Translations under genes and position numbers: made by a program
Notes under the pieces: model-generated
What the model saw: the letters and a program-made list of their open reading frames with translations, nothing else
What the model was told of the DNA's origin: nothing
Databases searched by the model: none
Shown: positions 6,073-49,283 of the stretch, in pieces
How the letters are laid out: each line of letters starts with the position of its first letter
Numbering within the stretch: position 1 is the first letter of the stretch
Assembly: GCA_043806955.1 (NCBI GenBank)
Contig: JAZDGK010000257.1
Location: 1 to 49,283 of the forward strand
DNA length: 49,283 nt
From: Pseudomonadota bacterium
Lineage (GTDB): Bacteria > Desulfobacterota > QYQD01 > JAZDGK01
Direction: 5' to 3'

Positions 6073-7341
6073 GTGAATTCTCCCCAGAGCGCAAGTTCAG
6101 AATCTTTCCGCTTGGACGATCTTCCTGACTTTCTCGATCAACTGGATCGGGCAGGTATTGCTGCTTTCTTCGTGGAAGACGGCCGGTGCAGGAGCGTAAA
6201 CAACTCGTTCTGCATTCTGTTCCAAATAGAATCTGCAGGCAAAGCGATCGGCGCCAGAATGACTGATTTCCTGCCCGATACATCTTCGTCGCAGAACTTG
6301 ACATCATTCTGCACCCAACCCTCCCCGGTATCCGAAAGGCCGTTTCGTCTGGAAATACAATTCGCGTCCATAGCAGGGAGAACGGGTGCGTACCTGGGTG
6401 TGATTAAGCATCCGTCCATAAATCTACTCAAAAAAAGGACCATGCCGGCCGGCGCTGCGTCACCTGAGTTCTCATCGAGTTCCTCCGGCGACAGTTTCGG
6501 CCCTTGCGCCATGGAAGGATTCGAAGATCTCGCCGCATGGATAAAAAGAGAATCGGATCTAAACCTTGACTATTACAAGTCCAGAACCGTTGTGCGCCGT
6601 ATCGAAAAGCGCTTGCTGGAGACAGGATGCAAAAATTGCCATGACTACTTGAATCTCCTGAAGAACAGTGCGGGCGAAAAGCGAAACCTGACTGAGTATC
6701 TGACAGTCGGGTTCACGGAGTTTTTCAGGGACGTCAAGGTTTTTGGCTTCTTGAAGGAGAGAATCTTTCCCGAAATTATTAACGGCAGGAAGTGTGCCGG
6801 CTCCGAATGCAACGGCCGCGATGCCCGAAAAGACGACATAAGGATCTGGTCCGCGGGAACGGCCAGTGGAGAAGAGGCTTATTCTGTGGCCGCTCTTGCG
6901 CTTGGCGCCTCTTCGGGCACGAGTCTGTTGCCCGTAGTATTTGCGACCGATGTCAGCGAAAACAAGATAAATATAGCGCGCAAGGGTGTGTACAGTTCAG
7001 AAAAGAGCTGGGGGATTCCCGCCGAGATGAGAAACCTTTATTTCTCATCAACTTCCAAGCTTTCCTTCAAAGTGTCCGATGCCATCAGGCGTCTATGCGT
7101 CTTTGGGCGCCATAACCTGATTGCGGATCCCCCTTACGGAAACATGGACCTGGTGCTTTGCCGGAACGTAATGATTTATTTCACGCCAAAACTTCAAGAG
7201 CAGATCACAGCAAACTTGATGTGGTCCTTGATCCCCGGCGGCTATCTGGTGCTCGGAAGCTCTGAATCGCTGCCGGGATCCGCAATGGGTAAATTTGAAG
7301 TAGTCGAGTCGGAATTGCACATTTATCGGAAACGCAGATAA
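6073..7341 (+). CDS. cheR: CheR-type protein-glutamate O-methyltransferase with N-terminal extension (possibly PAS-like)
   Basis: YKSRTVVRRIEKR, TEFFRD, IRIWSAGTASGEEAYS, DLVLCRNVMIYF, GGYLVLGSSES; start uncertain. Confidence 0.88.
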   Translation: MNSPQSASSESFRLDDLPDFLDQLDRAGIAAFFVEDGRCRSVNNSFCILFQIESAGKAIGARMTDFLPDTSSSQNLTSFCTQPSPVSERPFRLEIQFASIAGRTGAYLGVIKHPSINLLKKRTMPAGAASPEFSSSSSGDSFGPCAMEGFEDLAAWIKRESDLNLDYYKSRTVVRRIEKRLLETGCKNCHDYLNLLKNSAGEKRNLTEYLTVGFTEFFRDVKVFGFLKERIFPEIINGRKCAGSECNGRDARKDDIRIWSAGTASGEEAYSVAALALGASSGTSLLPVVFATDVSENKINIARKGVYSSEKSWGIPAEMRNLYFSSTSKLSFKVSDAIRRLCVFGRHNLIADPPYGNMDLVLCRNVMIYFTPKLQEQITANLMWSLIPGGYLVLGSSESLPGSAMGKFEVVESELHIYRKRR

Positions 7342-32958: not shown

Positions 32959-33033
32959 TGGTGGGCGGTACTGGGTTTGAACCAGTGACTTCCACCGTGT
33001 GAGGATGGCACTCTACCGCTGAGTTAACCGCCC
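32959..33033 (-). tRNA. tRNA-Val (anticodon CAC)
   Basis: GGGCGGT/ACCGCCC acceptor stem, anticodon loop CT-CAC-AC, GGTTCAAACC T arm, encoded CCA; 75 nt. Confidence 0.96.
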
Positions 33034-37176: not shown

Positions 37177-37824
37177 CTATGCAGTGACCAAATCCGTTAT
37201 ATACGGATTTGTTTCCTTCTGTTCTTTCAGGGTCGAACTGGGGGTATCTCCGTAATCATGACCGGGCCAGACTACGGTATTGTCCGGCAGCGGGAGAATC
37301 CTTTCTCGAATCGACTTGAGAAGGGTTTCGAGAGACCCTCCGGGCAGGTCCGTCCTGCCTACGGCCCCGACGAACAGAGTGTCTCCTGTAAACAGATTTC
37401 CTTTTCCATAAAGGCACATACCACCGGGCGTATGTCCCGGGGTATGAATTACCTCAAGAGAGCTCTCTCCAAACGTAATAAGGTCCCCATCTTTGATCCG
37501 GATATCGGCAGCGGGTGCGGGCGCAAATCCCCACTGTCTGAAGAGCATCTGAATACCGGGTTCACTGAAAAGTTGATCATCCAGCTCGTGCATGATCACC
37601 GGAGCCCCAGTCAGGGATTTCACTCTCTCGTTCCCGCAGGTATGATCCGGATGGCCATGTGTATTAACGATGTACCGGACCCGGAGGCCGAGTTTCCTTG
37701 TTGTTTCGACAATCCTTTCTTCATCTCCGGCAGGATCTATCAGCACTGCTTCCTTTGACCCGGGGCAGCCGACGATATAGCAGCAGACCTCCATTGCACC
37801 AACCGGCATCTGTGTAATCATCAT
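37177..37824 (-). CDS. MBL-fold metallo-hydrolase (glyoxalase II-like)
   Basis: THGHPDH, TPGHT, GDTLF, PGH. Confidence 0.94.
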   Translation of the reverse strand: MMITQMPVGAMEVCCYIVGCPGSKEAVLIDPAGDEERIVETTRKLGLRVRYIVNTHGHPDHTCGNERVKSLTGAPVIMHELDDQLFSEPGIQMLFRQWGFAPAPAADIRIKDGDLITFGESSLEVIHTPGHTPGGMCLYGKGNLFTGDTLFVGAVGRTDLPGGSLETLLKSIRERILPLPDNTVVWPGHDYGDTPSSTLKEQKETNPYITDLVTA

Positions 37825-38750
37825 AGTTCCTCACTTTCCGTCTTGTCGTCTGTACGCTTCAGGAAGTTGGTTGCAGCTATTGCCGCAACGCAGCCCTCCC
37901 CTACCGCCTTCGCCATCTGAAAGGGCGGACCACAAATATCGCCGGCGGCAAAAATTCCGGGGACGTTCGTACTCTGCCGCTTATCGGTCATCACAAATTT
38001 GAATGACTCAGAGTCCAGTTGAATATCCAAGCCGGCAGCAAGTTCCATGATCCCCTTGGCCCCCAGCTCCACAAACAATCCGTTTACGGCGAGGATGCGA
38101 TCATCTTTCAAAACTATATCCTTGAGTTCATCTTCTCCGCGGAGCTCCTTGATCCAATTATTCTCGATCAGTTCGATCTCGCTCTCTCTGATTTCTCTCT
38201 CAAGGGCCGGCGCTACCGATAGCTTTTTGCAGATGAAACAGGTTTTGGACGCATATTTGGAGAGTGTGAGTGCGCCTGCAGCCGCGCCGGAACCGTCTCC
38301 TATGATTGCCACAACCTGGTTCCGAAAAAAGCCCGCGTCGCAGTCAACACAGTAGCTCAGGCCCCGGCCAAGAAAATCCTTTTCTCGCTTGAGGCCGAGC
38401 TTCTTTCGAGAAACCCCGGTGGCAAAAATCAGAGCGCCGCAGGTTATCTTCGCTCCGCTTTCAGTCAGGACCGAAAACGAGATCTCCTCCTTTTCGATCC
38501 TTATCGCATCCTCTGCGAGAAAATGGGCGCCAAACGATTCTGCCTGTTTCTTTCCAATATCGAGCAGGTCAGCGCCGCGTGATTTCGGCACGGAGCAGTA
38601 ATTCTCGATATGTGCGGCCAAAAACAGGCTCGATTTATCCGGCTTGCCCATAACCAGAACCGAGACTCTGCGTTTGGCGGCGTGGATAGCGGCCTGAAGA
38701 CCGGCCGGCCCGGCGCCCAGGATTATGATGTCATAGCTTTTCGATTCCAT
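37821..38750 (-). CDS. Thioredoxin reductase-like FAD/NAD(P) oxidoreductase
   Basis: GAGPAG, ATG, SYCVDCD redox motif, IFAAGD. Confidence 0.9.
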   Translation of the reverse strand: MESKSYDIIILGAGPAGLQAAIHAAKRRVSVLVMGKPDKSSLFLAAHIENYCSVPKSRGADLLDIGKKQAESFGAHFLAEDAIRIEKEEISFSVLTESGAKITCGALIFATGVSRKKLGLKREKDFLGRGLSYCVDCDAGFFRNQVVAIIGDGSGAAAGALTLSKYASKTCFICKKLSVAPALEREIRESEIELIENNWIKELRGEDELKDIVLKDDRILAVNGLFVELGAKGIMELAAGLDIQLDSESFKFVMTDKRQSTNVPGIFAAGDICGPPFQMAKAVGEGCVAAIAATNFLKRTDDKTESEEL

Positions 38751-38906
38751 CTAACCTCCCCATAACAGTCTTATTCACCACCCGCTCCCTCCGGTCGCTG
38801 AAGAACACGAAGATCGCCCCCTCTTGACATGAGATTTCTTCGTGTCCTTCGTGTTCTTCGTGGTGAAATCTCTGCTTGCAGCCCTGCCGCGCCGCGTGCA
38901 CTGAGT

Positions 38907-39089
38907 TCAATCTTCTTCATTCCGGTCCGGCCGTTCCTCGGGTTGCCTCTCAATTTCTCCGGGAATTCGGTAATCCTCGTCAAACCATTTCCCGAGATCG
39001 AGAAGCTTGCATCTGTCCGAACAAAATGGACGAAAAGGATTCCCTTCCCATGGACATAACCTGCTGCAAATAGGGCATTTTACTCTCAT
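38907..39089 (-). CDS. yacG: DNA gyrase inhibitor YacG
   Basis: CPIC...PFCSDRCKLLDLGKW..E.YRIP. Confidence 0.92.
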   Translation of the reverse strand: MRVKCPICSRLCPWEGNPFRPFCSDRCKLLDLGKWFDEDYRIPGEIERQPEERPDRNEED

Positions 39090-40030
39090 CAAACGATCCA
39101 GCACGCAAGGTTATTGGCCATGGACAAGACCTTGTTTGAAACACTCCCCATGAAAAACTCTTTCGATTTCGAGACCCCCCGCCTGGCCAGTACCACAGTA
39201 CCGAAATTACGTCTTGTGGCCTCGCTCACTATATCTCTGGCAATATTAGTGGAACATTTTTTGATCTTGATAGAAACTTGCCTCTCCGACACCCCGGCAT
39301 CAAGCAGAATCTTTCTTGCCTGGAAAAAGAAGGGCTGAATTCTCTCGGCGCCTTTTTCCGTCATGATCTCTTCTATCCCATCCAGCTCAATTTCGGTCTC
39401 CTCCATACTCAAGAACCTGAGACCGGGGATGACGTGATAGAGCAGGATTTTCATATTGGGCAGGCCATTGATGATAAACCCCAGATGATCAACTGCCATC
39501 AGTGAGGTATCCGAGGCATCCACGGCAACAAGTATCTTTCCCGAAGACACGTCTCCGTCTATAACCCAGACCGGTCTCGTCTGGACTCCCTGAACTATTT
39601 TGGTAGATATGCTTCCCATTATGGCCGACTGCATTCTGGACAGTCCGCGCCGTCCTATGACCACTGCGTCATAGTCGCCTCTACCCGCCTCATGAATGAT
39701 GTCCCTGGCCAGACCCACCTTCTTTTCATGGACTGTGGCCGCTGTGGCCTCTGCGGAGATCTGCCCTTTCCTGATCAGGATATCGACCCCTTTGTCCATG
39801 AACACCTTTGCCTTTTCCTTCTGCATTTTTATCAGTTTAGCAGCTTTGGCGGAAGTTATCTGCCATTCTCCACCATACTCCCGGTCTGTCAGTATGGGCG
39901 GCAAGGGAGGCAAAATGTTGAGCAGGGTTACACGGAGTTCCGGGTCTCCGGCAAACAACCGGGCGACATACGAAACAGCTCGTTCCGAATTAAGAGATCC
40001 ATCCGTAGCTACAAGTATCTTTTTCTCCAT
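39089..40030 (-). CDS. Universal stress protein, tandem USP domains
   Basis: ILVATDGS / ILVAVDAS and two RRGxS...GS motifs. Confidence 0.93.
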   Translation of the reverse strand: MEKKILVATDGSLNSERAVSYVARLFAGDPELRVTLLNILPPLPPILTDREYGGEWQITSAKAAKLIKMQKEKAKVFMDKGVDILIRKGQISAEATAATVHEKKVGLARDIIHEAGRGDYDAVVIGRRGLSRMQSAIMGSISTKIVQGVQTRPVWVIDGDVSSGKILVAVDASDTSLMAVDHLGFIINGLPNMKILLYHVIPGLRFLSMEETEIELDGIEEIMTEKGAERIQPFFFQARKILLDAGVSERQVSIKIKKCSTNIARDIVSEATRRNFGTVVLARRGVSKSKEFFMGSVSNKVLSMANNLACWIV

Positions 40031-40060
40031 AAGCCGATCCTTTTTACAACATTCACCGAT

Positions 40061-40137
40061 TTAGTTTGTCTGGTTTGTTTGGTTTATTTGGTTTATTTAG
40101 TTTATTTAGTTTGTTTGGTTTGTTTGGTTTGTTTGGT
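40061..40137. repeat. 9-mer tandem repeat (TTTGTTTGG-like)
   Basis: About eight degenerate units of TTT(G/A)TTT(G/A)G. Confidence 0.85.
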
Positions 40138-40139
40138 CA

Positions 40140-40276
40140 GTAGGGTGGGCTTTGCCCACCGTCCTATCCGCCATCCGCTGGCCATTCCCAATCCCGGCTA
40201 TCATTCGCTCTCCACGCCCCTGGCAATCTCATTTTCGCATCAATCCGGAGTCATCGGTGGGCAAAGCCCACCCTAC
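40140..40276. repeat. GTAG-type REP inverted doublet (REPIN-like)
   Basis: GTAGGGTGGGCTTTGCCCACC at 40140-40160 and its exact reverse complement at 40256-40276. Confidence 0.85.
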
Positions 40277-40353
40277 GTTACTGAAGTCAAGGATGCTGTC
40301 GATTCTATTTTTCTTTCCATTCCGCAATCCGAATTCCGAAATCCGAAATTGAA

Positions 40354-40737
40354 TCACTCAGCACTCAGCAGTACTTTCTTTAGAACCGGCAGCGCTTCCT
40401 CAAAAGTCACGTTCTTGTTAAAACCCGGACAATTCTGCTGGATCGTAGTGAAACTCGATTTTTCGAGCAGGCTCGGCACGAACGGCCATTCCCGGCATCG
40501 GTCCGGCTTATAGCCATGTACGGAGCACCTGCCGGTCCAGAATATACAATGATCGGCCACGACCTTCATTTGGACCCGTCCCGGCTTGAGCACGCAATAC
40601 TCCGTCAGGAATTCTTTCTCAGTTAATTCCAGGCCTGCGGCCATCCTCGATGTATCCGCCGGATTCAAACAAATAGTATCCTGGCCGTAGCAGCACTCAT
40701 CACACATTTGACATGTAAACAGGTCTTCAATTTGCAT
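40354..40737 (-). CDS. YkgJ family cysteine cluster (CxxCxxCC) protein
   Basis: CQMCDECC, CIF, CSVHGYKPDRCREWPF, CPG. Confidence 0.9.
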   Translation of the reverse strand: MQIEDLFTCQMCDECCYGQDTICLNPADTSRMAAGLELTEKEFLTEYCVLKPGRVQMKVVADHCIFWTGRCSVHGYKPDRCREWPFVPSLLEKSSFTTIQQNCPGFNKNVTFEEALPVLKKVLLSAE

Positions 40738-40788
40738 ATGTTTTCCTATTCCTCGGTGAACGGTCAACGGTCAACGGTGAACCGTTCC

Positions 40789-42525
40789 CTACCGCACCGG
40801 CAGATATATCGTGAAGACCGTGCCTTCTTCCGGATCGCTCCGGCATTCAATTCTACCTCGATGCGCCTCAATAATGCCCTTGACTATGGAAAGGCCGAGG
40901 CCGGTTCCTGACTTACGCTTCGTGGTGAAAAACGGCTCGAATATCTTTTCCATTATACCAGGATCTATGCCGGACCCTGAGTCGGTCATGTTTATCCGGA
41001 GGTTCTCTCCGCTTATCGAGCCTTCGATAAGTATCTTCCCCCCGCTGCCGATCGCGTCCAGACTGTTCTTTATCATATTGTTAAACACCTGGTAAATCTG
41101 TCGATAGTCGATACTTATGGCCGGAATACCAGGCTGCCATTCAAACCCAAGAACAATGCCTCTCCGCTCCGCCTCCGGCCCGTATACGAACAAGACCTCT
41201 CGAATAATATCGTCCACGGAAGAGGCAACCAGATGGAGCTCCGGTTTCCTGGCGAACTGAAGGAAGTCCTGAATAAAACTCCTCACCCGAACCGAATCCT
41301 TCTCCAGGATCTCCAACGCTTTCTTCCCCCGGGAAGTGGATGCCTCGTCCTTTAGTATGGAAACGACAAGACCTATATTGTTGAGCATGTTCCCGACCTC
41401 GTGCGTAACCTTGCTGGAAGCGGATCCCAGAATGGCCAGGTTTTTCGCATGTACCAGTTCTTTAGCCGTCTCGATCTCCCGCTTTATGTAGTTCTTCAGT
41501 GAATCGGTCATCTGGTTGAAGGATACGCCAAGATCACCGATTTCGTCCTGAGCGTCTATAGATACCTTTTTATCCAAATCGCCCTCGCTGATACTCTTTA
41601 CCTGACGGTGCAGGTCCTGAATGGGCAGGAGGAAGCGCCTCACCCGGTTCAGTCCCAGGAGTATGGCTGCAAGACAAATGAAACACGTCATGAAAACGGC
41701 CCAGTGGGCGTTATCGTAAAGATAGGTGTAGATCTCTGCATACGTTTGGCTGAGCACGACAATCCAGTCGAGACCGCTTATGTAATAACCTAGACAGTAC
41801 AACTGCTGATCCCCTTCTTCTTCCATCCATTGCACAGGAGCCTCAGTCTGTGATATTCTTTCCATTATGGCCCGGTCCTTGCGGGGACCTTGTTTGATGA
41901 CGCGATCGATTTCCCGGTGGCCGATAATCCGTCCTGACCGGTCCAGAATATAGACTTGCCCGGTCTGCCCAATACGGATTCCTTCGAGAATGTCCCAAAC
42001 GGACTTAAGATTGAGCTCGGCCCAGAGGACCTCGCCTGCCTGTCCCAGTTTTTTTACCGGAACAGCTAGACAGAGGTACGGCAACCCTTCTTTGGTTATC
42101 AAAACGGGAGAAACAGCGGATTGCCCTGCAAATGCCTTCGCCAGTATTTCCCTCTCACAGCGCCCCGGGTGGGTTCTCTCGGTACCGGCTGCCTGTATTT
42201 CGGTTCCGTCTCTGGAGATCAAGGATACGGAGATGAATTGAGGAGAGGTATGGGTAAATGCCGTGAGAGAAATCTGCTTTTGCCACTGGTCCAGCTTTGT
42301 GGCTGCAATAACCAGGGCCAGACTGTCCAGGCCCTTCCGGGCGTTTTCCATGTAGAGCCTGATCTGACCTGCGCAGCTCTTGAGTATGTTTTCATAGTCC
42401 TGGTTTATAGTCTTCAGGGCGTAATTATGACTTGTCCAGGTTAGAATAAGACTGGTAAGTATGATCGAGAATATTACCAGAGGGAGTACAAACAGGAGGA
42501 ACTTATAGATGATCTTGGTCTTCAT
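40789..42525 (-). CDS. Membrane sensor histidine kinase (TM-Cache-TM-HAMP-HisKA-HATPase)
   Basis: Two TM segments, Cache-like GQTGQVYILD..G.IIGH, HAMP DEIGDLGVSFNQM, H-box THEVGN, DSGSG, GTGLGL. Confidence 0.92.
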   Translation of the reverse strand: MKTKIIYKFLLFVLPLVIFSIILTSLILTWTSHNYALKTINQDYENILKSCAGQIRLYMENARKGLDSLALVIAATKLDQWQKQISLTAFTHTSPQFISVSLISRDGTEIQAAGTERTHPGRCEREILAKAFAGQSAVSPVLITKEGLPYLCLAVPVKKLGQAGEVLWAELNLKSVWDILEGIRIGQTGQVYILDRSGRIIGHREIDRVIKQGPRKDRAIMERISQTEAPVQWMEEEGDQQLYCLGYYISGLDWIVVLSQTYAEIYTYLYDNAHWAVFMTCFICLAAILLGLNRVRRFLLPIQDLHRQVKSISEGDLDKKVSIDAQDEIGDLGVSFNQMTDSLKNYIKREIETAKELVHAKNLAILGSASSKVTHEVGNMLNNIGLVVSILKDEASTSRGKKALEILEKDSVRVRSFIQDFLQFARKPELHLVASSVDDIIREVLFVYGPEAERRGIVLGFEWQPGIPAISIDYRQIYQVFNNMIKNSLDAIGSGGKILIEGSISGENLRINMTDSGSGIDPGIMEKIFEPFFTTKRKSGTGLGLSIVKGIIEAHRGRIECRSDPEEGTVFTIYLPVR

Positions 42526-42535
42526 AATCCTCTAA

Positions 42536-42772
42536 GAGGGTATCTAAAAAGTCTCAATTTTGTTCAAGGTCAAGGAAGGCGAGGATTCTAACCCTTGAAG
42601 GCTGGAAGGCTGGGATGCTGGGAGGCGAGAAGGCTGAGAGGCAATCCCAGCGGGTCGGCTTTCCAGCTTTCTGGCTTCGGCCTCCTGGCTTCCTGGCTTC
42701 CTGGCCTTCTGAGGATTAGAATCCGAGCCTGACGCAAAGATTGGGCAAAAGGGAGACTTTTTGGATACCCTC
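42536..42772. mobile_element. Family A MITE with TAA TSD and inserted octamer repeats
   Basis: TIR GAGGGTATC(T/C)AAAAAGTCTC; TAA at 42533-42535 and 42773-42775; interior matches 1..140 plus GGCTGG(A/G)A / CCTGGCTT tracts. Confidence 0.8.
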
Positions 42773-42874: not shown

Positions 42875-44185
42875 TCATGCAGCATTTTCTATCCTGGAGG
42901 CTGTATCTTCAGGGGGTATTCTGGAGGCTTGTTCCATTATGTAATTCTCCAGAAAAAAGCGGTTTGCGTCATAGTGGCAATCGATCCCGTTAAAACCGTT
43001 GTTGCCGACCAGGGCCTGCAGCCGGCAGCCGCCCATACAGATGGGGAGGATCGGGCATTCCTTGAGGCATTTTTCCGGCAGGATACGGTTCAGCTTCTGG
43101 CTTTCCAGGATAAAATCGATTCCCTTATTCACGTGACCGTAGGCCATCTCGCCACCCTGCACAGACGGACAGGGTATAATGGAGCCGTCGGTATCAAAAA
43201 TGAACTTGGACTGGAAATCGGCCATACAAGCAGTGGAGGGAGGCTCTTCGAATTGCGGATAGCCCCTCTTTTCCGCTTCCTGCATCAGAAATAGGGCAAT
43301 TTTTGGATCGCCCATACCCGACTCATAGCTGTCCTCCTTTCTGCTCCGCAGAATAGCAGTAAAGGCAATGTTTTCAACAACGATTCCCCTTTCTTTGAAA
43401 TCATCCAGCATCACGGGTATGCTTAAGTAATCCTGGGATCCGCTGTCGTACTGGCATTCTATATTTATCCGAACCTGGCCTGATATGGCTTGGAGATTCT
43501 TTACTATCCGGTCGTATGTCTTTCCATTCTCTTTTGAGGGGCGCAGGGCATCATGGACCGGCGCCGGTCCGGCCATACTGACACGAATCCCGCCGAGTCC
43601 TGTCTCCTGCATTTTTGCAATCAAATCGTAATTGACCAATGTCCCATTTGTCGTGATTGTGAAGGAGTATTCGACTCCCTTCCCCAGACAGTAATGGAAC
43701 CGCCTCGATGCACTTTCCAATATAACTCCGGGGTTTAATAGTGGTTCACCACCGAGATAGTCGTCACTGACGTTCTTGGGATTCCTCTCGTTGATAATAC
43801 CGATGTAGAAATCATCCATAACCTTGGCCACTTCCGGAGACATATGTCCGGCTTCAGCATCCAGGATGCAATAGCGGCAGCGATTATTGCATTGCCGGGT
43901 GACGAGGACCTTTGATTTGACCGTGCTTGAATCGTATACATGCTGGTGCTTCCAGTGATGAAATACCGCTGTCTCGTCGGTATCTTCCTTTAACAGAAAG
44001 CCTTGTTCACAGAGGGTATCACCATCATCGGGCGACATGTCGACCTCCCCGGTCACAGAGTGCCAAGCCATCCCGGGCATCAGCGCCAGGGCTTTACTCA
44101 TGGTGTGAAACAAGGCCACAAAATCCCGGCCATCCTTTTCAACGGGGACTTCCACCACGAACCGCGACTTCTTGAGGCGAGCCAT
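42875..44185 (-). CDS. Radical SAM/SPASM domain protein, putative peptide maturase
   Basis: CNNRCRYC, GGEPLL, TTNG; SPASM-type C..DGSIIPC...CLKECPILPICMGGC...C; ~90-aa N-terminal extension; AGGAG RBS. Confidence 0.92.
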   Translation of the reverse strand: MARLKKSRFVVEVPVEKDGRDFVALFHTMSKALALMPGMAWHSVTGEVDMSPDDGDTLCEQGFLLKEDTDETAVFHHWKHQHVYDSSTVKSKVLVTRQCNNRCRYCILDAEAGHMSPEVAKVMDDFYIGIINERNPKNVSDDYLGGEPLLNPGVILESASRRFHYCLGKGVEYSFTITTNGTLVNYDLIAKMQETGLGGIRVSMAGPAPVHDALRPSKENGKTYDRIVKNLQAISGQVRINIECQYDSGSQDYLSIPVMLDDFKERGIVVENIAFTAILRSRKEDSYESGMGDPKIALFLMQEAEKRGYPQFEEPPSTACMADFQSKFIFDTDGSIIPCPSVQGGEMAYGHVNKGIDFILESQKLNRILPEKCLKECPILPICMGGCRLQALVGNNGFNGIDCHYDANRFFLENYIMEQASRIPPEDTASRIENAA

Positions 44186-44226
44186 ATCTTCTCCTTGACA
44201 GGACTACGGTCAAAGCGAATAAACAC

Positions 44227-44260
44227 GCCCCCCGGTGAGGTCAAACCTGTCCCGGGGGGC
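44227..44260 (-). promoter_or_regulatory. GC-rich hairpin between peptide and maturase genes
   Basis: GCCCCCCGG / CCGGGGGGC 9-bp stem with inner AGG/CCT pairing; only a weak U tail. Confidence 0.7.
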
Positions 44261-44275
44261 TTTGTTACTGCAGAA

Positions 44276-44368
44276 CTAACTTCGGCCGTTGGGGGCATTT
44301 TTACAGCAGACCAATCCGGTTTTGCTGATTGTGAAATTGCCCTTTTTGATGACTATCAGTCCTTTCAT
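44276..44368 (-). CDS. Putative RiPP precursor peptide MKGLIVIKKGNFTISKTGLVCCKNAPNGRS (30 aa)
   Basis: Translated by hand (absent from the ORF track); strong AAAGGAG RBS just upstream of ATG 44368, TAG stop, directly upstream of the rSAM/SPASM gene. Confidence 0.8.
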   Translation of the reverse strand: MKGLIVIKKGNFTISKTGLVCCKNAPNGRS

Positions 44369-44696
44369 CGCTTACTCCTTTCCTGGGTTTAATAGGCACT
44401 CCTGAGATAGCCCTTCTTATCGGCAACCATGATCTCATGCTTTAACGTGTTTTGACAAAAATGAATGCAAATCCCTATACTAGTGATTCCGTCAGGGAAT
44501 CAGAATGACAGGCGCCCAGTGCTTAATTGCATTAATCCATTGTCACTCCTGTGGAAACGGGAATCCAGTATTTTCGATGGATTCCTGCTGGGGTTTACCC
44601 TGGCGAAAGCGGGGGCGGGAATGACAAGATATATTGGTTATTTCTGCAATTTGACACTGGACTTGGGCGGAAGGGGATTGAATCTCGCGGAGATGG

Positions 44697-46253
44697 TTAT
44701 GGAGAGGATTTTCCGCTCATGCTTCTGTCCAGCGATGCATGCTTCAGTCGAGACCTGCCTTCCAGCGTGAGGCTAAAAGGATACCGCAATCTGAATCTCT
44801 TAGACATTACATCCACTACGGTCTTTCGAAAAAGAAACAAGGCTGGATGGTTCGAGATGACCAGATCGTATGATGGGTTGATAGATATGCCTTTCCCCTT
44901 CAAATTCTTCGTCAGGCCGGATTGACAGGCCAGTCTGCGGAGGGTATCAGGATCAACACTCCCGGTTCTTTTCCCCACATTGGATGCGGGGCAAAAAAGC
45001 GAAGGGCCAAGCCTGTATTCGGTGATAACCGCCTGGAAATCCCTGCTATTTCGATAACGGGCAGCAAGAGACTCAAAAGGAAGTGCCTTTATTTGCGTCC
45101 TGATCCCCAGGTCACTGAAACAGAGCTGCAGACAGGCGGCAACCTTCTTTTCAACCTGATACTCATCAAATACATAGATCGTGAAATCGAAAGGCCTTCC
45201 GTCCCTTCGAAGCCTGCCATCTTCCGATAGATTCCAGCCTGCTTCTTTCAAGAGCGCGAGAGACTTCGCCGGATCAGGTCTCTCTTCGGGAGACAAATCT
45301 GTTGGTATCTTACCAAATCCCGACAAGGCTTCTTCAACAATGCGCTTTCTGTCCACCGCGCAAGCAAGGGCCTGCCTTGTCTTCAGGTCTGAAAACAGTG
45401 GATCGCACACATTGAAAAGCAGCACCGTACAGTAATTGAGACAGTTGACGTTGAAATAATACTCCGCCTTCTTGTCCTTCATAATATCATAATCGCCCGG
45501 AGCTATTTCCGAAGCCACATCGGTCTCGCCTGAGAGCAGTCTCGCCCAGGTTTTCTCCCCGTGACGCTGGCAATAAAAAACAATTCGGTCCAACTCCGGA
45601 CGGCCGCCATAGTATTTCTCGTTGGCCACAAGCCTTACTTCCGTGTTACCTTTTTTAGATTCAAACCTGAATGGACCCGAACCTATCGGGGAACAATGAT
45701 CGGCGCCATTTTTGCCGGGTTGTGGGATTATTTCAACAGGCCATATTCTGGTCAAAAAGTCAGGCTGTTCTTTTTTCAATACTATGACTATCCTGTTGTC
45801 GGAAACAGGAAGAACCTCTCGAATTGAAGCAAAGAGAATCGGGTCGTAATTCCGTAACACAGTATCTATTGAATAAACTACATCATCTGCTCTAACCACT
45901 CTTCCGTCATGGAATCGTGCGTCTTTTCTAATAGATATAGTCCAGGTAAACGTCTTCGAATCGTAGGTCCATTTTTCTGCAAGATCCGGTTCCAGTTCAC
46001 CTTCGGGATTGGGAATGCAAAGGTAGCTGTACAAGAAAGGAAACAAATGATCTGAACCGCAACAGGCATCTGCTGGATTGAGCGAGGCCAAAGGCGCGTT
46101 TACATCGTACCGTAGCACATTCTCACTTCGGATTTCGTCTTTGCCGTGACCATCTATTCGATTGCACGAAGCAAGCAGAAACAGCGCCAGCAAAGCAAAG
46201 AGAATTCGGGGATGCTTAGGCCGTTCCCCCCACTTTCCGAGGTGGATCTTCAT
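44697..46253 (-). CDS. ABC transporter family 5 solute-binding lipoprotein, paralog 1
   Basis: Lipobox LASC, PDLAEKW, FHDG, ADDVVYS, PIGSGPF. Confidence 0.88.
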   Translation of the reverse strand: MKIHLGKWGERPKHPRILFALLALFLLASCNRIDGHGKDEIRSENVLRYDVNAPLASLNPADACCGSDHLFPFLYSYLCIPNPEGELEPDLAEKWTYDSKTFTWTISIRKDARFHDGRVVRADDVVYSIDTVLRNYDPILFASIREVLPVSDNRIVIVLKKEQPDFLTRIWPVEIIPQPGKNGADHCSPIGSGPFRFESKKGNTEVRLVANEKYYGGRPELDRIVFYCQRHGEKTWARLLSGETDVASEIAPGDYDIMKDKKAEYYFNVNCLNYCTVLLFNVCDPLFSDLKTRQALACAVDRKRIVEEALSGFGKIPTDLSPEERPDPAKSLALLKEAGWNLSEDGRLRRDGRPFDFTIYVFDEYQVEKKVAACLQLCFSDLGIRTQIKALPFESLAARYRNSRDFQAVITEYRLGPSLFCPASNVGKRTGSVDPDTLRRLACQSGLTKNLKGKGISINPSYDLVISNHPALFLFRKTVVDVMSKRFRLRYPFSLTLEGRSRLKHASLDRSMSGKSSP

Positions 46254-46404
46254 GAGTCCGACAGGCTCCTGGAAGGTTTAGGCTCTTTGTATGTAAAAAT
46301 GTGACAAAAATCAATCATGTTTTTGCCGGACAGTCAACGGACAACGGTCCCATCCGCTTCGTAGGATGCACTGCACAAAAGGGGAGTGAATCACGCGGAG
46401 ATGG

Positions 46405-47961
46405 TTATGGAGAGGGTTTTCCGCTCATGCTTCTGTTTAACGATGCATACTTCAATCGAGATCTGCCTTCCAATGTGAGGCAAAAAGGATATCGCAGTTT
46501 GAACCTCCCGGACATCACGTTTACGACCGTCTTACGAAAAAGAAACAAGGCCGCCTGGTTCGAAACAACAAAATCGTATGTTGGATTGAAGGATATCCCT
46601 TTCCGCTGCAAATCTTTCATAAGGCCTGATTGACAGGCCAGTTTGCAGGGGGTGTTGGGATCAAGACCTCCTGCTTTCATTCCTGTATGGGACGGGCAGA
46701 AAGGAGAGGAACCAAGCCTGTATTCGGTAATAACCGCCTGGAAGTCCCTGTTATTTCGATAACGGCCGGCAAGAGACTCAAAAGGAAGGGCCTTTATTTG
46801 CGTCCTGATCCCCAGGTCACTGAAACAGAGCTGCAGGTAGGCGGCAACCTTCTTTTCAACCTGATACTCATCAAATATATAGATCGTGAATTCGAAAGGC
46901 TTGCCGTCCCTTCGAAGCCTGCCGTCTTGTGATAGATTCCAGCCTGCTTCTGTCAAGAGCGCCATAGACTTGGCCGGATCAGGTCCCTCTTCGGGAGAAA
47001 TATCTGTCGGTATCTTACCAAATCCCGACAACACTCCCTCAACAATGCGTTTTCTGTCTACCGCGCCGGCGAGGGCCTTCCTTGTCCTCAAATCTGAAAA
47101 CAACGGATCCTTTACATTGAAAAGCAGCACTGTACAGTAGTTGATACAGTTCGTATCGAAATAATACTGTTCCTTTCTTCCCTTTATCATATCGTAATCA
47201 TCCGAATCTATTTCCGAAGCCACATCGGTCGCACCCGAGAGCAGCCTTGCCCAGGTCTTTTCCTTGTGAGGCTGGTAGTAGAAGACAATTCCGTCCAACT
47301 TCGGACGGCCGCCATAGTATCCTTCATTCGCCACAAGCGTCACTTCTGTGTTGCCCTTTCTGGATGCAAACTTGAACGGACCCGAGCCTATAGGGCGATA
47401 CCCATTCGAGCCATTCTGCCCGGGCTGCGGGACTATTTCTGTGGGCCAGATCTTGGTCAAATAGTCCGGTTGGTCTTCTTTCAGTACTATGACTATCCTG
47501 CTGCATGAAACAGCATAAACCTTTCGGATCGAGGCAAAGAAGACCGGGCTATGATTTCGCAATAGAGTATTTATTGAATAAACTACATCATCTGCTTCAA
47601 CCTGCCTTCCGTCATGGAATTGCATGCCCCTTCTAATCGATATCGTCCAGGTAAACGTCTTCGAATCATAGGTCCATTTTTCTGCAAGATCCGGTGCCAG
47701 TTCACCTTCGGGATTGGGAATGCAGAGATAGCTGTACAAAAAAGGGAAGAAATACCCTGAACCGGAAGAAGGATCATCCGCAGGATCGAGCGACGTAAAG
47801 GGAGCATTCACGTCGTACCGCAACACATTTTCACTTCGGATCTCGTCTTTGCCATGACCATCCATTTGATTGCACGAAGCGAGCAGCAGCGGTACCAGCA
47901 AAGCAAAGAGAATTCGGGGATGCTTGGGCCATTTCCCCCACTTTCCGCAGTGGATCGTCAT
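46405..47961 (-). CDS. ABC transporter family 5 solute-binding lipoprotein, paralog 2
   Basis: Same motifs and length (518 aa) as paralog 1. Confidence 0.88.
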   Translation of the reverse strand: MTIHCGKWGKWPKHPRILFALLVPLLLASCNQMDGHGKDEIRSENVLRYDVNAPFTSLDPADDPSSGSGYFFPFLYSYLCIPNPEGELAPDLAEKWTYDSKTFTWTISIRRGMQFHDGRQVEADDVVYSINTLLRNHSPVFFASIRKVYAVSCSRIVIVLKEDQPDYLTKIWPTEIVPQPGQNGSNGYRPIGSGPFKFASRKGNTEVTLVANEGYYGGRPKLDGIVFYYQPHKEKTWARLLSGATDVASEIDSDDYDMIKGRKEQYYFDTNCINYCTVLLFNVKDPLFSDLRTRKALAGAVDRKRIVEGVLSGFGKIPTDISPEEGPDPAKSMALLTEAGWNLSQDGRLRRDGKPFEFTIYIFDEYQVEKKVAAYLQLCFSDLGIRTQIKALPFESLAGRYRNNRDFQAVITEYRLGSSPFCPSHTGMKAGGLDPNTPCKLACQSGLMKDLQRKGISFNPTYDFVVSNQAALFLFRKTVVNVMSGRFKLRYPFCLTLEGRSRLKYASLNRSMSGKPSP

Positions 47962-48074: not shown

Positions 48075-49271
48075 TCAGAAATCTGTCCATGCAGTTCTGA
48101 ATTGTTTTCCGGCGACAACTAATGATGACGCCAGCATTAGCAATGCCCCGAGTGTGAATAGTAACTGCGGACCCCATGTGTTCAGAATCACAGCGCTGCT
48201 CAGCATGACACCCAGGAAGCATGTGCCTTTGAATGCGGCGAGCGCCGGCATCGTCCTACTCAAAGCGCCGGTGCTTTCCTGCTGGATGAGGCTTTCGAGA
48301 AGGACGTGCAGCAGGGAAAAACCGAAGCCGAGCAGGATCATGAGTGGAAGCATGTGCGCATGGAAGGAGGGGACTCCTGCTATAGCCATGCTTCCCCCGG
48401 CTATCAGCAGGCCCAGAGAGACCAGGACCTCGCCCTTCCATATCAATGAGCATTTCGGGAGCAAACACGTAGCCAGAAAAGAACCGGCGGTATACCCGGA
48501 CATGAGGATGCCCCAATCGGCAATGGTTCCGGACTGTGCCTTGACGAGCATGGGAAAACCAAGATTCAGAGTTCCGCCCCCAATCAGCACAATCCCGAGC
48601 ACGGCGAAACGGCCTTTCAGAACAGGACTGAGCTGGAAAGGTTCCACGTATTTGCAGAACAAGGACCTCGCGTCCGTACCCTCTCCCCTCTTCGCCCCCC
48701 CTGACCTTGCCTCACATGACGGCAGTTTACTGCCGGCAAACGCGGCAATCAAGAAAAGAAGCGCAGCAACGGCTAAGGCCGTTTCTCGACCTGCCTTCAA
48801 AACAATCCAACTGATAATCCATGGCCCGCATATTCCCCCGGCGAGGGCCACTCTTTCGTTTAGAGAGTTAAAAGATATAATCCAGTCTTTTTGTACGATC
48901 ATGGGTGTAATATAAAGTCTGCCGATGTAGAAGAATAATGAGCCGACAATTATGAGGAGATAGAGGGGCAGGACCGTACAGCGGGAGACAGACAGGATGA
49001 GAAGGACGGCCACGGCGGCCTTGCCGAGGTTCACGCCGGCAAGCCACTTCTTTCCTTCAGAACGATCAATCCAGAAGCCGGCAACATGGCTCAAAAGAAT
49101 TGAAGGGCCCTGTTCAAGGATACCCATCAGGAGGAGATTAGAAAACGCGTTTTCTCTCGTGAAGACAAGCAAATTGAGGAGAGCCAGCCCGACAAACCGG
49201 TTTCCCAGATCTGCCAGCAAATCACACACGATTAAGAGATTTCCGGCACGGCTGCGAACGAATCCAGGCAT
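48075..49271 (-). CDS. MFS transporter (H+ antiporter / macrolide efflux-like)
   Basis: About 12 hydrophobic segments and motif A-like AGFWIDRSEGK; true start may lie near or beyond the window edge. Confidence 0.85.
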   Translation of the reverse strand: MPGFVRSRAGNLLIVCDLLADLGNRFVGLALLNLLVFTRENAFSNLLLMGILEQGPSILLSHVAGFWIDRSEGKKWLAGVNLGKAAVAVLLILSVSRCTVLPLYLLIIVGSLFFYIGRLYITPMIVQKDWIISFNSLNERVALAGGICGPWIISWIVLKAGRETALAVAALLFLIAAFAGSKLPSCEARSGGAKRGEGTDARSLFCKYVEPFQLSPVLKGRFAVLGIVLIGGGTLNLGFPMLVKAQSGTIADWGILMSGYTAGSFLATCLLPKCSLIWKGEVLVSLGLLIAGGSMAIAGVPSFHAHMLPLMILLGFGFSLLHVLLESLIQQESTGALSRTMPALAAFKGTCFLGVMLSSAVILNTWGPQLLFTLGALLMLASSLVVAGKQFRTAWTDF

Positions 49272-49283
49272 ATACCCCCCGTC

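Follow-up and report, generated by a model that had tools for sequence, protein, structure and literature searches.

We have analysed a 49,283-nucleotide stretch of DNA from a bacterium of the Desulfobacterota (contig JAZDGK010000257.1 of assembly GCA_043806955.1; hereafter, the window), in which a minus-strand open reading frame (ORF) of 30 codons, pep1, lies directly upstream of the gene for a radical S-adenosylmethionine (SAM)/SPASM enzyme. The two very probably form a conserved precursor-maturase pair, and it is likely that a dedicated TonB-dependent receptor belongs to the same system. By sequence comparison, the maturase and its peptides belong to a lineage that is sister to, and divergent from, the uncharacterised geopeptide family; i.e., the system is of a known but uncharacterised kind, with accessory genes of its own. 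Sulfate-reducer-type bacteria probably secrete its product, an uncharacterised peptide that would act as a metal carrier or a signal. The original prediction, made from the letters of the window alone, had proposed pep1 as a candidate ribosomally made, post-translationally modified peptide (RiPP). That it is a precursor with a leader, acted on by a geopeptide-like maturase, is now supported by its conservation, by a model of the complex, and by the finding that the geopeptide maturase family TIGR04280 is the best family match of the enzyme. The features that make up the pair, together with a paralogous peptide, pep2, on an adjoining contig of the same genome (C200), are as follows.

44276..44368, minus strand: pep1, precursor peptide of 30 residues (orthologs, paralog pep2, peptide alignment A2, and the ratio of non-synonymous to synonymous change, dN/dS)
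44375..44383, minus strand: Shine-Dalgarno site GGAAAGGAG of pep1, 6 nt 5' of the ATG
44227..44260, minus strand: core of a GC-rich hairpin in the pep1-maturase spacer (RNA folding, z -3.7)
42875..44185, minus strand: radical SAM/SPASM peptide maturase, 436 residues (TIGR04280, E 3.8e-60; AlphaFold 2 (AF2) model)
43916..44185, minus strand: N-terminal domain resembling a RiPP recognition element (RRE), residues 1-90 (AF2 secondary structure, complex model)
43868..43891, minus strand: CX3CX2C motif (C99, C103, C106) of the radical-SAM cluster, invariant in 35 of 35 sequences
42977..43228, minus strand: SPASM array C320, C339, C373, C377, C383, C387, C403 (homolog alignment)
49143..49283, no strand: exact overlap of 141 nt with the start of contig C200 (identical bases)
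L031 (contig C200) 508..618, minus strand: pep2, paralogous precursor, 40% identical to pep1

The Cys-Cys peptide and its probable maturase

The translation of pep1, MKGLIVIKKGNFTISKTGLVCCKNAPNGRS, can be divided into a leader (approximately residues 1-14, with the motif LIVIKKG), a core containing C21-C22, and the tail KNAPNGRS. The ORF and its strong ribosome-binding site, GGAAAGGAG 6 nt before the ATG, were present as first described, and a comparable Shine-Dalgarno site (score of at least 4) precedes 30 accepted peptides with an adjacent cysteine pair (CC), pep1 counted. The 90-nt spacer between pep1 and the maturase gene does contain the hairpin that had been proposed there: its predicted fold has an energy of -41.9 kcal/mol, compared with -29.8 +/- 3.3 in shuffled sequences (z -3.7), and none of 200 shuffles was as low. 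Hairpins that differ in sequence are also found 3' of pep2 and of the peptides in three related loci (L019, L053, and L088). From its sequence, the spacer hairpin is probably a partial terminator or an RNA-stability element, which would raise the ratio of precursor to enzyme.

Maturase homologs were sought in 401 genomes of the phylum, of which 34 contained one at E <= 1e-30. From these, 37 loci with 38 maturase places were taken, and together with the window they give the 39 places on which all neighbour counts are based (L-numbers denote loci, and G-numbers genomes). A precursor was accepted if an ORF of 20-60 residues starting with ATG, with a Shine-Dalgarno site, a hydrophobic leader motif, and CC, lay no more than 250 nt upstream of the maturase. 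Of the 39 places, 30 had such an ORF; among 1900 places drawn at random from the same loci, 2 did. Thus, the search for short CC peptides beside relatives of the enzyme, which the original prediction had suggested, yielded a conserved small ORF that is precursor-like and adjoins a radical SAM/SPASM enzyme. A further CC peptide, in L065, lies 586 nt upstream of its maturase. The eight places with no CC peptide upstream comprise two single-Cys loci (L081 and L085), five with none, and L052, which could not be judged because the contig edge is too near. In L081 and L085, the maturase stop codon is followed, some 120-280 nt downstream, by single-Cys peptides with a similar leader (MKLQVIKKGTRKDDKKTLYCAWFVST and MKIIKKGTRRNSRSVNRCVWVISH); these loci have a family-5 solute-binding protein (SBP), and they may represent a one-Cys variant of the system.

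Thirty-one peptides were aligned (A2); two candidates, L071 9288-9431 and L086 3831-4052, were dropped as spurious, and the L065 and L088 peptides are not in the alignment. Met1 and both Cys are invariant, although this invariance of the Cys pair is circular in that the peptides were partly selected by CC. Because of this selection, we used upstream ORFs chosen on the leader motif alone as an independent test, and CC was present in 30 of 31. The leader-motif Gly (G10) is conserved to at least 90%; a Pro and a basic residue are found repeatedly 4-8 positions past CC, the tails being otherwise highly variable.

Neither Pfam nor NCBIfam models matched pep1, and a search of a protein atlas gave no usable match. 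The lack of a family match, like the eight places without an upstream CC peptide, might be expected of a chance ORF that is not translated, with the enzyme acting on another substrate. This we regard as very unlikely. Synonymous change exceeded non-synonymous change (dN/dS of 0.34 between pep1 and the L019 peptide and 0.22 between pep1 and pep2, the remaining pairs being saturated), and this, with the conservation beside maturases (30 of 39 places, against 2 of 1900 at random), the strong Shine-Dalgarno sites, and the paralog in the same genome, speaks against a chance ORF. So does the modelled complex of pep1 with the maturase, described below (0.74, against 0.01 for the best control).

Because the first 141 bases of C200 equal the last 141 of the window, pep2 can be placed about 5 kb upstream of pep1 in one locus. 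It translates as MRIKMKTKRVIIVAKGGFKTRTSALMCCRGGPSARS, alternatively starting at an inner Met, and it has its own hairpin, with the gene for a third SBP (SBP3) before it and a major facilitator superfamily (MFS) gene after it. An SBP-peptide unit is thus doubled within the genome (SBP3-pep2 and SBP1-pep1) and looks to have been duplicated as a cassette. Orthologous peptides precede the maturases of L019 (enzyme 65% identical; MKLIVINKGTYRVKKSGLMCCGNAPSSRN), L088 (64%; MKLIVVNKGTYKVRRSGLFCCFRNGPTSRN), and L053 (55%; MRVVMVNKGFFGIRTSGLICCYSGPYTRA). When genome contigs were searched with the maturase protein alone, one close locus was returned (L019; two relatives in total), and the same single-protein search of metagenome contigs gave one new close locus, L088, with L089 repeating L019. 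In L019, the maturase gene shifts frame near codon 385 (about 7150..7180), within the SPASM motif, with the correct C-terminus continuing in another frame; either the gene is a pseudogene or the assembly is wrong here.

The enzyme has the hallmarks of radical SAM/SPASM peptide maturases, i.e., CX3CX2C, a GGE motif (G145-G146-E147), and a seven-Cys SPASM array. In an alignment of 35 of the 39 maturases (A1, from which L052, L070, and L076 were excluded for a long extension at the C-terminus and L059 because it nearly duplicates L057), five of the seven SPASM Cys are invariant, the other two (C373 and C403) being conserved in at least 90% of sequences. The Pfam model Radical_SAM (PF04055) scored 44.1 bits, and the NCBIfam SPASM model TIGR04085 scored 42 bits against a cut-off of 27. 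About 95 residues lie ahead of the CX3CX2C motif. The description of an enzyme with CxxxCxxC, a full SPASM Cys array, and an N-terminal extension of about 90 residues was therefore correct. The extension of about 290 residues at the C-terminus of three homologs (L052 579..2762, minus strand; L070 5019..7100, plus strand; L076 7960..10140, plus strand) had no likeness to the MFS protein of the window and no Pfam match, ruling out an MFS domain.

A wide protein search returned 197 relatives of the maturase at E <= 1e-30. Among those listed, the best 119 clusters besides the window's own were 50-83% identical. Any names given were only "radical SAM protein" or "uncharacterized", and any source given was a metagenome or a metagenome-assembled genome, with the label Deltaproteobacteria, Desulfobacterales, Desulfobacteraceae, Thermodesulfobacteriota, or, once, Pseudomonadota.

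The geopeptide system is defined by sequence models only, i.e., TIGR04229 for the peptide (cut-off 30 bits) and TIGR04280 for the maturase (cut-off 400 bits). We found no paper on geopeptide, TIGR04280, or TIGR04229, although supplementary mining tables could list the family; so far, it is a name without a function. TIGR04280 was the best NCBIfam family of the window maturase and aligned over its full length, yet the score of 204.1 bits is below the curated cut-off. True members scored 679 (L075), 654 (L071), 622 (L072), 611 (L080), 594 (L062a and L074), and 471 (L087), whereas L055 (313), L081 (308), and L053 (190) fell below 400 as well. About two-thirds of the aligned homologs (23 of 35) score at about the cut-off or above; the window maturase does not. 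In a maximum-likelihood tree (IQ-TREE, midpoint-rooted only), the maturases of the window, L019, L088, and L053 form a clade (100/100) with a long stem (2.08), outside the 23-row TIGR04280 clade (100/99). The sub-cut-off score and the position outside that clade are the basis on which we call the window lineage a divergent sister of TIGR04280.

TIGR04229 gave no match with pep1 or pep2 at E <= 10; seven of eight other neighbouring peptide ORFs were unmatched, the eighth scoring 9.8 bits (E 0.73). A six-frame scan of the window's own genome gave chance-level hits, the best (12.2 bits) lying elsewhere, and over the 401 genomes nothing exceeded the cut-off. Even the peptide beside the 679-bit maturase of L075 scored merely 28 bits. 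As a test of membership, the TIGRFAM/NCBIfam search that had been suggested was therefore negative on both counts. The suggested likeness to the geopeptide pair stood in part: TIGR04280 is the best family, and its true members carry a similar CC peptide, with a short leader of the IxVLxxG type, CC, and a short tail (e.g., MEIEVLNQGVEECQIVAGCCTGGANSARK, beside the L075 enzyme); membership, as judged by the cut-offs and the tree, did not stand. The window lineage also has the context of TIGR04280 loci, i.e., an adjacent CC precursor and a linked TonB-dependent receptor of a dedicated clade common to both. Unlike true TIGR04280 loci, which have an SBP of family PF04392, it uses family-5 SBPs, an MFS pump, and a dCache kinase.

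Predicted leader docking and possible chemistry at the Cys pair

In the AF2 model of the maturase (predicted local distance difference test score, pLDDT, 89.4), the N-terminal RRE-like domain is predicted to contain strands at residues 4-6, 10-17, 20-27, and 32-37, followed by helices at 38-45, 52-60, and 71-83. When a complex of the maturase with pep1 was modelled from alignments built for this analysis, the interface score ipSAE was 0.74 (runs 0.71-0.75), compared with 0.01 for the best of three controls; according to the tool, 58 of 80 solved complexes attain the mark for this score, as do 2 of 110 mismatched pairs. Agreement of contacts between runs was at least 36%, and the pLDDT of the partner at least 53. 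The confident contacts of the model join residues 2-12 and 14 of pep1 to enzyme residues 24-37, 40, 51-61, 78-87, and 419-428, the leader pairing with strand 32-37 and helix 52-61 in an RRE-like strand addition. The N-terminal part of the peptide, proposed to be a leader, thus behaves as one in the model, although this result may partly reflect memory, because similar complexes have already been solved.

The suggested check of the domain for an RRE fold gave a divided result. The order of the secondary structure elements fits the RRE winged helix of three strands and three helices, but when folds like that of the isolated domain were sought, nothing was hit at E <= 0.001 (best E 0.015; template-modelling (TM) score 0.38). 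Its top three weak hits were the RRE protein TbiB1 with leader (E 0.015-0.1, TM 0.35-0.39), and the Pfam scan gave no PqqD match on the maturase. Because the isolated-domain search was weak, we grade the domain only as a likely RRE, based on the models.

The best solved relative of the maturase was the thioether-forming enzyme CteB, which modifies the SCIFF ranthipeptide CteA (PDB 5WGG/5WHY), both by sequence (E 8e-42) and by fold over the full length (Foldseek E 5e-19, TM 0.65-0.67), although the two are only 19-21% identical; TigE, anSME, SuiB, and ChlB followed. The modelled placement of the leader on the N-terminal domain is likewise as in CteB. Whereas the SCIFF layout has six spaced Cys, there is one adjacent pair here, and this single pair also distinguishes pep1 from PapA, with its CX3D repeats. 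The SPASM Cys match CteB in their 3+4 pattern and spacing, with three Cys for auxiliary cluster 1 (AC1) and four for AC2, as set out in the available part of PMC10177961. The same part of that paper describes binding of PapB and Tte1186 substrates to AC1 through a substrate cysteine.

In the reading that we favour, pep1 and pep2 are very probably precursors of a ribosomal, radical-SAM-modified peptide. The leader (about residues 1-14, LIVIKKG) would dock as a strand on the RRE-like domain, and the short core (Cys-Cys and about eight more residues, to near a conserved Arg) would enter the radical SAM/SPASM active site. There, the three-Cys auxiliary cluster would most likely bind the Cys thiols, and these would become linked, as thioethers, to carbon atoms of nearby residues. 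By analogy with the cluster scheme of CteB- and PapB-type enzymes, we give thioether formation at Cys-Cys roughly even chances. In the 31 peptides of A2, no acceptor residue is conserved before or after CC, so that the sequence does not reveal the chemistry. Unlike the substrates of CteB and PapB, the CC peptides have no conserved Thr, Asp, or Glu acceptor, and the mark of a ranthipeptide, an Asp, Glu, Thr, or Asn acceptor at a fixed spacing from Cys, was absent from the alignment. With no side-chain acceptor conserved, links to the alpha-carbon, as in sactipeptides, are as likely as links to side chains. With one enzyme and a 30-residue substrate, the system is small and tractable, and it could reveal new radical chemistry on adjacent cysteines.

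The receptor and the other genes of the locus

When the window is joined to C200, the order of genes on the minus strand is sigma-54 response regulator, TonB-dependent receptor, tetratricopeptide repeat (TPR) membrane protein (on the opposite strand), SBP3, pep2, MFS pump, SBP2, SBP1, pep1, maturase, and dCache histidine kinase. The second precursor, the receptor, the three SBPs, the pump, and the kinase with its sigma-54 regulator had no place in the original prediction, and together they alter the likely biology. Those not yet listed are given below.

44697..46253, minus strand: SBP1, family-5 periplasmic solute-binding lipoprotein, directly upstream of pep1 (Pfam SBP_bac_5, E 1.8e-61)
46405..47961, minus strand: SBP2, tandem paralog of SBP1, 77% identical (sequence comparison)
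48075..49271, minus strand: MFS transporter, candidate exporter (Pfam MFS_1, E 8.6e-06, 25.3 bits, under the 33.4 cut-off)
40789..42525, minus strand: sensor histidine kinase, dCache_1-HAMP-HisKA-HATPase, directly downstream of the maturase gene (Pfam)
L031/C200 880..2451, minus strand: SBP3, 51% identical
L031/C200 5554..7413, minus strand: TonB-dependent receptor (Pfam)
L031/C200 7756..9141, minus strand: sigma-54 response regulator (Pfam)

In L019 and L088, the order of SBP then peptide is retained, within the series sigma-54 activator, SBP, peptide, maturase, MFS, and kinase; in L019, a receptor lies ahead of the activator. Orthologs of the MFS protein (49% identity) are encoded 3' of the maturase gene in both, and full-length orthologs of the kinase occupy the equivalent position (60% identity in L019, 58% in L088). 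In the window, SBP1 and SBP2 (44697..47961) have duplicated 5' flanks. Between the maturase and kinase genes (42597..42700) are two short tandem arrays, each the reverse complement of the other, which form a long imperfect hairpin (-53.4 kcal/mol, z -2.9).

When every ORF lying no more than 6 kb from one of the 39 maturase places was clustered without bias, a TonB-dependent receptor appeared at 31 of them, a histidine kinase at 26, and a sigma-54 regulator at 5. A periplasmic binding protein was near the maturase at 28 places (PF04392 at 19, SBP_bac_5 at 9); the family-5 proteins track lineages outside TIGR04280, and PF04392 tracks TIGR04280 proper. The receptor of the window is outside the 31 because it lies about 10.5 kb from the maturase. 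TonB-dependent receptors are few in these genomes: five of them had 2, 6, 9, 7, and 9, that of the window had 2, and in G169 both adjoin its two maturases.

A FastTree phylogeny (with local support values) was built from 32 linked receptors and 20 unlinked receptors of the same genomes, several of the unlinked rows being long branches. Thirty of the 32 linked receptors fell in one clade (support 100) with just one of the 20 unlinked, and their branching mirrors that of the maturase tree. The linkage label required 3 changes on this tree, against 16.3 in shuffles, and none of 500 shuffles was that low. From the shared clade and the mirrored branching, we conclude that, on phylogenetic evidence, the receptor is a dedicated, co-inherited partner of the maturase. 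An orphan receptor of the maturase-linked clade occurs in L101 (G255:C22:95400-98800), with no CC peptide in the 3.4 kb; it may import what others produce.

That a Cys-Cys precursor, a single radical SAM/SPASM enzyme, and a dedicated receptor are kept family-wide, the sister lineage included, points to a secreted, re-imported peptide in strict anaerobes. In the window lineage, the MFS pump would probably export the product, the receptor would return it across the outer membrane, the family-5 SBPs would bind it in the periplasm, and the dCache kinase and sigma-54 response regulator would sense it. Judged from conserved gene linkage, we put this whole route of export, re-uptake, and sensing at slightly better than even. 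There is precedent for a TonB-dependent transporter gene within a radical-SAM peptide cluster. The available text of PMC11002830 describes the Itf cluster of Bacteroides thetaiotaomicron, with the radical-SAM enzyme ItfD, the YcaO protein ItfB, the ATP-binding cassette (ABC)/C39 protein ItfE, the TonB-dependent transporter ItfF, and the precursor ItfA. From that text, Itf is unlike the present system in having a C-C link and an amidine, extra enzymes, a peptidase-exporter, and an Ile-Thr-Phe motif in its precursor.

Several observations weigh against the reading of pep1 as the precursor of a peptide that is modified, exported, and recaptured. To the sub-cut-off TIGR04280 score, the missing TIGR04229 match, the circular selection by CC, the weak isolated-domain search, and the lack of a conserved acceptor must be added the situation in G293, where the peptide-maturase pair (L053) stands among unrelated housekeeping genes, the receptor ortholog (46%) is on another contig, and a sigma-54 activator followed by an SBP (43%) is on a third; this arrangement argues against an obligatory coupling. 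In the locus, we found neither permease nor ATPase genes of an inner-membrane ABC system, and among the locus ORFs scanned with Pfam there was no leader-removing protease; that scan identified the radical-SAM enzyme, SBP_bac_5, MFS_1, the kinase, the receptor, the sigma-54 regulator, and the TPR protein. Finally, pep1 has no sigma-54-like promoter, the best site upstream matching at 5 of 11 positions, and is preceded by just a weak sigma-70-like site (9 of 12 positions).

Possible roles of the product

One tentative proposal is that the product is a metal carrier, i.e., a secreted Cys-Cys metallophore for a scarce soft metal (Ni, Co, Cu, Zn, Mo, or W) in sulfidic habitats. Just as tentatively, its route would follow the logic of methanobactin, with export by the MFS protein and recapture of the metal complex by the receptor and NikA-like SBPs. 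The accessible part of PMC7558416 describes methanobactin loci with a short ribosomal precursor, an efflux pump, a TonB-dependent receptor, and an OppA/AppA-type SBP, and the set of precursor, maturase, pump, receptor, and SBP found here parallels MbnA, MbnBC, MbnM, MbnT, and MbnE. The maturase, however, is a radical SAM/SPASM enzyme rather than MbnBC, and no MbnB- or MbnC-like protein was present among the locus ORFs scanned with Pfam.

The nearest NCBIfam families of SBP1 were NikA, Opp5A, and CntA, and for SBP1-3 the best were nickel and staphylopine-metal binders (all under cut-off); solved relatives include NikZ, CntA, and NikA, but the oligopeptide binder AppA scores equally. The receptor clade dedicated to these loci would suit a metal carrier, and the orphan receptor in G255 recalls siderophore piracy. 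On the other hand, if both thiols were tied up as thioethers, the best metal ligands would be lost; there is no inner-membrane importer in the locus; and we found no metal-responsive regulator and, in an Rfam scan of eight loci (144,827 bases), no riboswitch, a tRNA being the sole match. Sensing by a two-component system with a sigma-54 regulator is, moreover, just as typical of signalling.

A signal is a second possibility, and one that we also regard as rather doubtful. Here, an autoinducer would pass the receptor and be presented by an SBP to the dCache kinase, and the sigma-54 regulator would activate the precursor genes in a positive loop. The frequency of kinases (26 of 39) and periplasmic SBPs (28 of 39) near the maturase, without ABC permease genes, fits this, as do the co-occurrence of window-type kinase orthologs with family-5 SBPs (L019, L055, L066, L081, L085, L086, and L088) and the duplication of the SBP-peptide unit in the genome. 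Sigma-54-like sites lie 69-87 nt before the start codons of pep2 and of the L019, L053, and L088 peptides. The site of pep2, TGGCAGGTCTCTTGCG, 69 nt upstream, matches at 9 of 11 positions, as do those of the L019 and L053 peptides, and that of L088 matches at 8; nine positions were reached by 6 of 32 peptides, compared with 33 of 1280 control windows. However, pep1 itself lacks such a promoter, sigma-54 regulators were found at just 5 of the 39 places, and a TonB-dependent receptor is a costly route for a signal. Two-component control of a receptor gene by a periplasmic ligand also occurs for siderophores, which weighs against the signal reading. As the SBPs resemble metal and oligopeptide binders equally, and there is neither a riboswitch nor an inner-membrane importer, a metal carrier and a signal are not separated by these results.

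It is quite unlikely that the peptide is instead a cofactor precursor, from which the modified Cys-Cys would be excised as a small cofactor-like molecule, to be scavenged by the receptor. CC alone is invariant across the 31 peptides, the tails varying widely, and NCBIfam includes a TonB-dependent receptor family for PqqU (NF041535), the importer of pyrroloquinoline quinone (PQQ). Both PQQ and mycofactocin arise from peptides via radical SAM/SPASM enzymes, according to the available part of PMC10114670. Nevertheless, there are no tailoring enzymes or proteases beside the single maturase, and a basic residue 6-8 positions past CC is widely kept, with a Pro; retention of these two residues after CC suggests that the tail belongs to the product.

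Taken further, the metal-carrier reading would make the product, a very small Cys-Cys peptide that one enzyme cross-links in Desulfobacterota-type anaerobes, the first metallophore of radical-SAM origin. We think this improbable, but if it were true, the peptide would be secreted and recaptured via a receptor clade co-diversified with the maturase, winning soft metals in sulfidic sediments, and the window lineage would have added paired SBP/precursor cassettes and a sensing loop of kinase and sigma-54 regulator. More generally, the system could show how sediment anaerobes acquire metals or communicate.

Other features of the window lie farther from the pair. Three ORFs 3' of the kinase gene (37821..40767, minus strand) encode a PF03692 CxxCxxCC protein (putative zinc-/iron-chelating), a tandem universal-stress protein, and a protein like thioredoxin reductase, the last judged by eye only. 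Between the universal-stress-protein and CxxCxxCC-domain genes is a 9-nt tandem repeat, TTTGGTTTG, of 8.7 copies (40060..40137). A tRNA gene is at 32962..33033 on the minus strand (Rfam, 64.1 bits).

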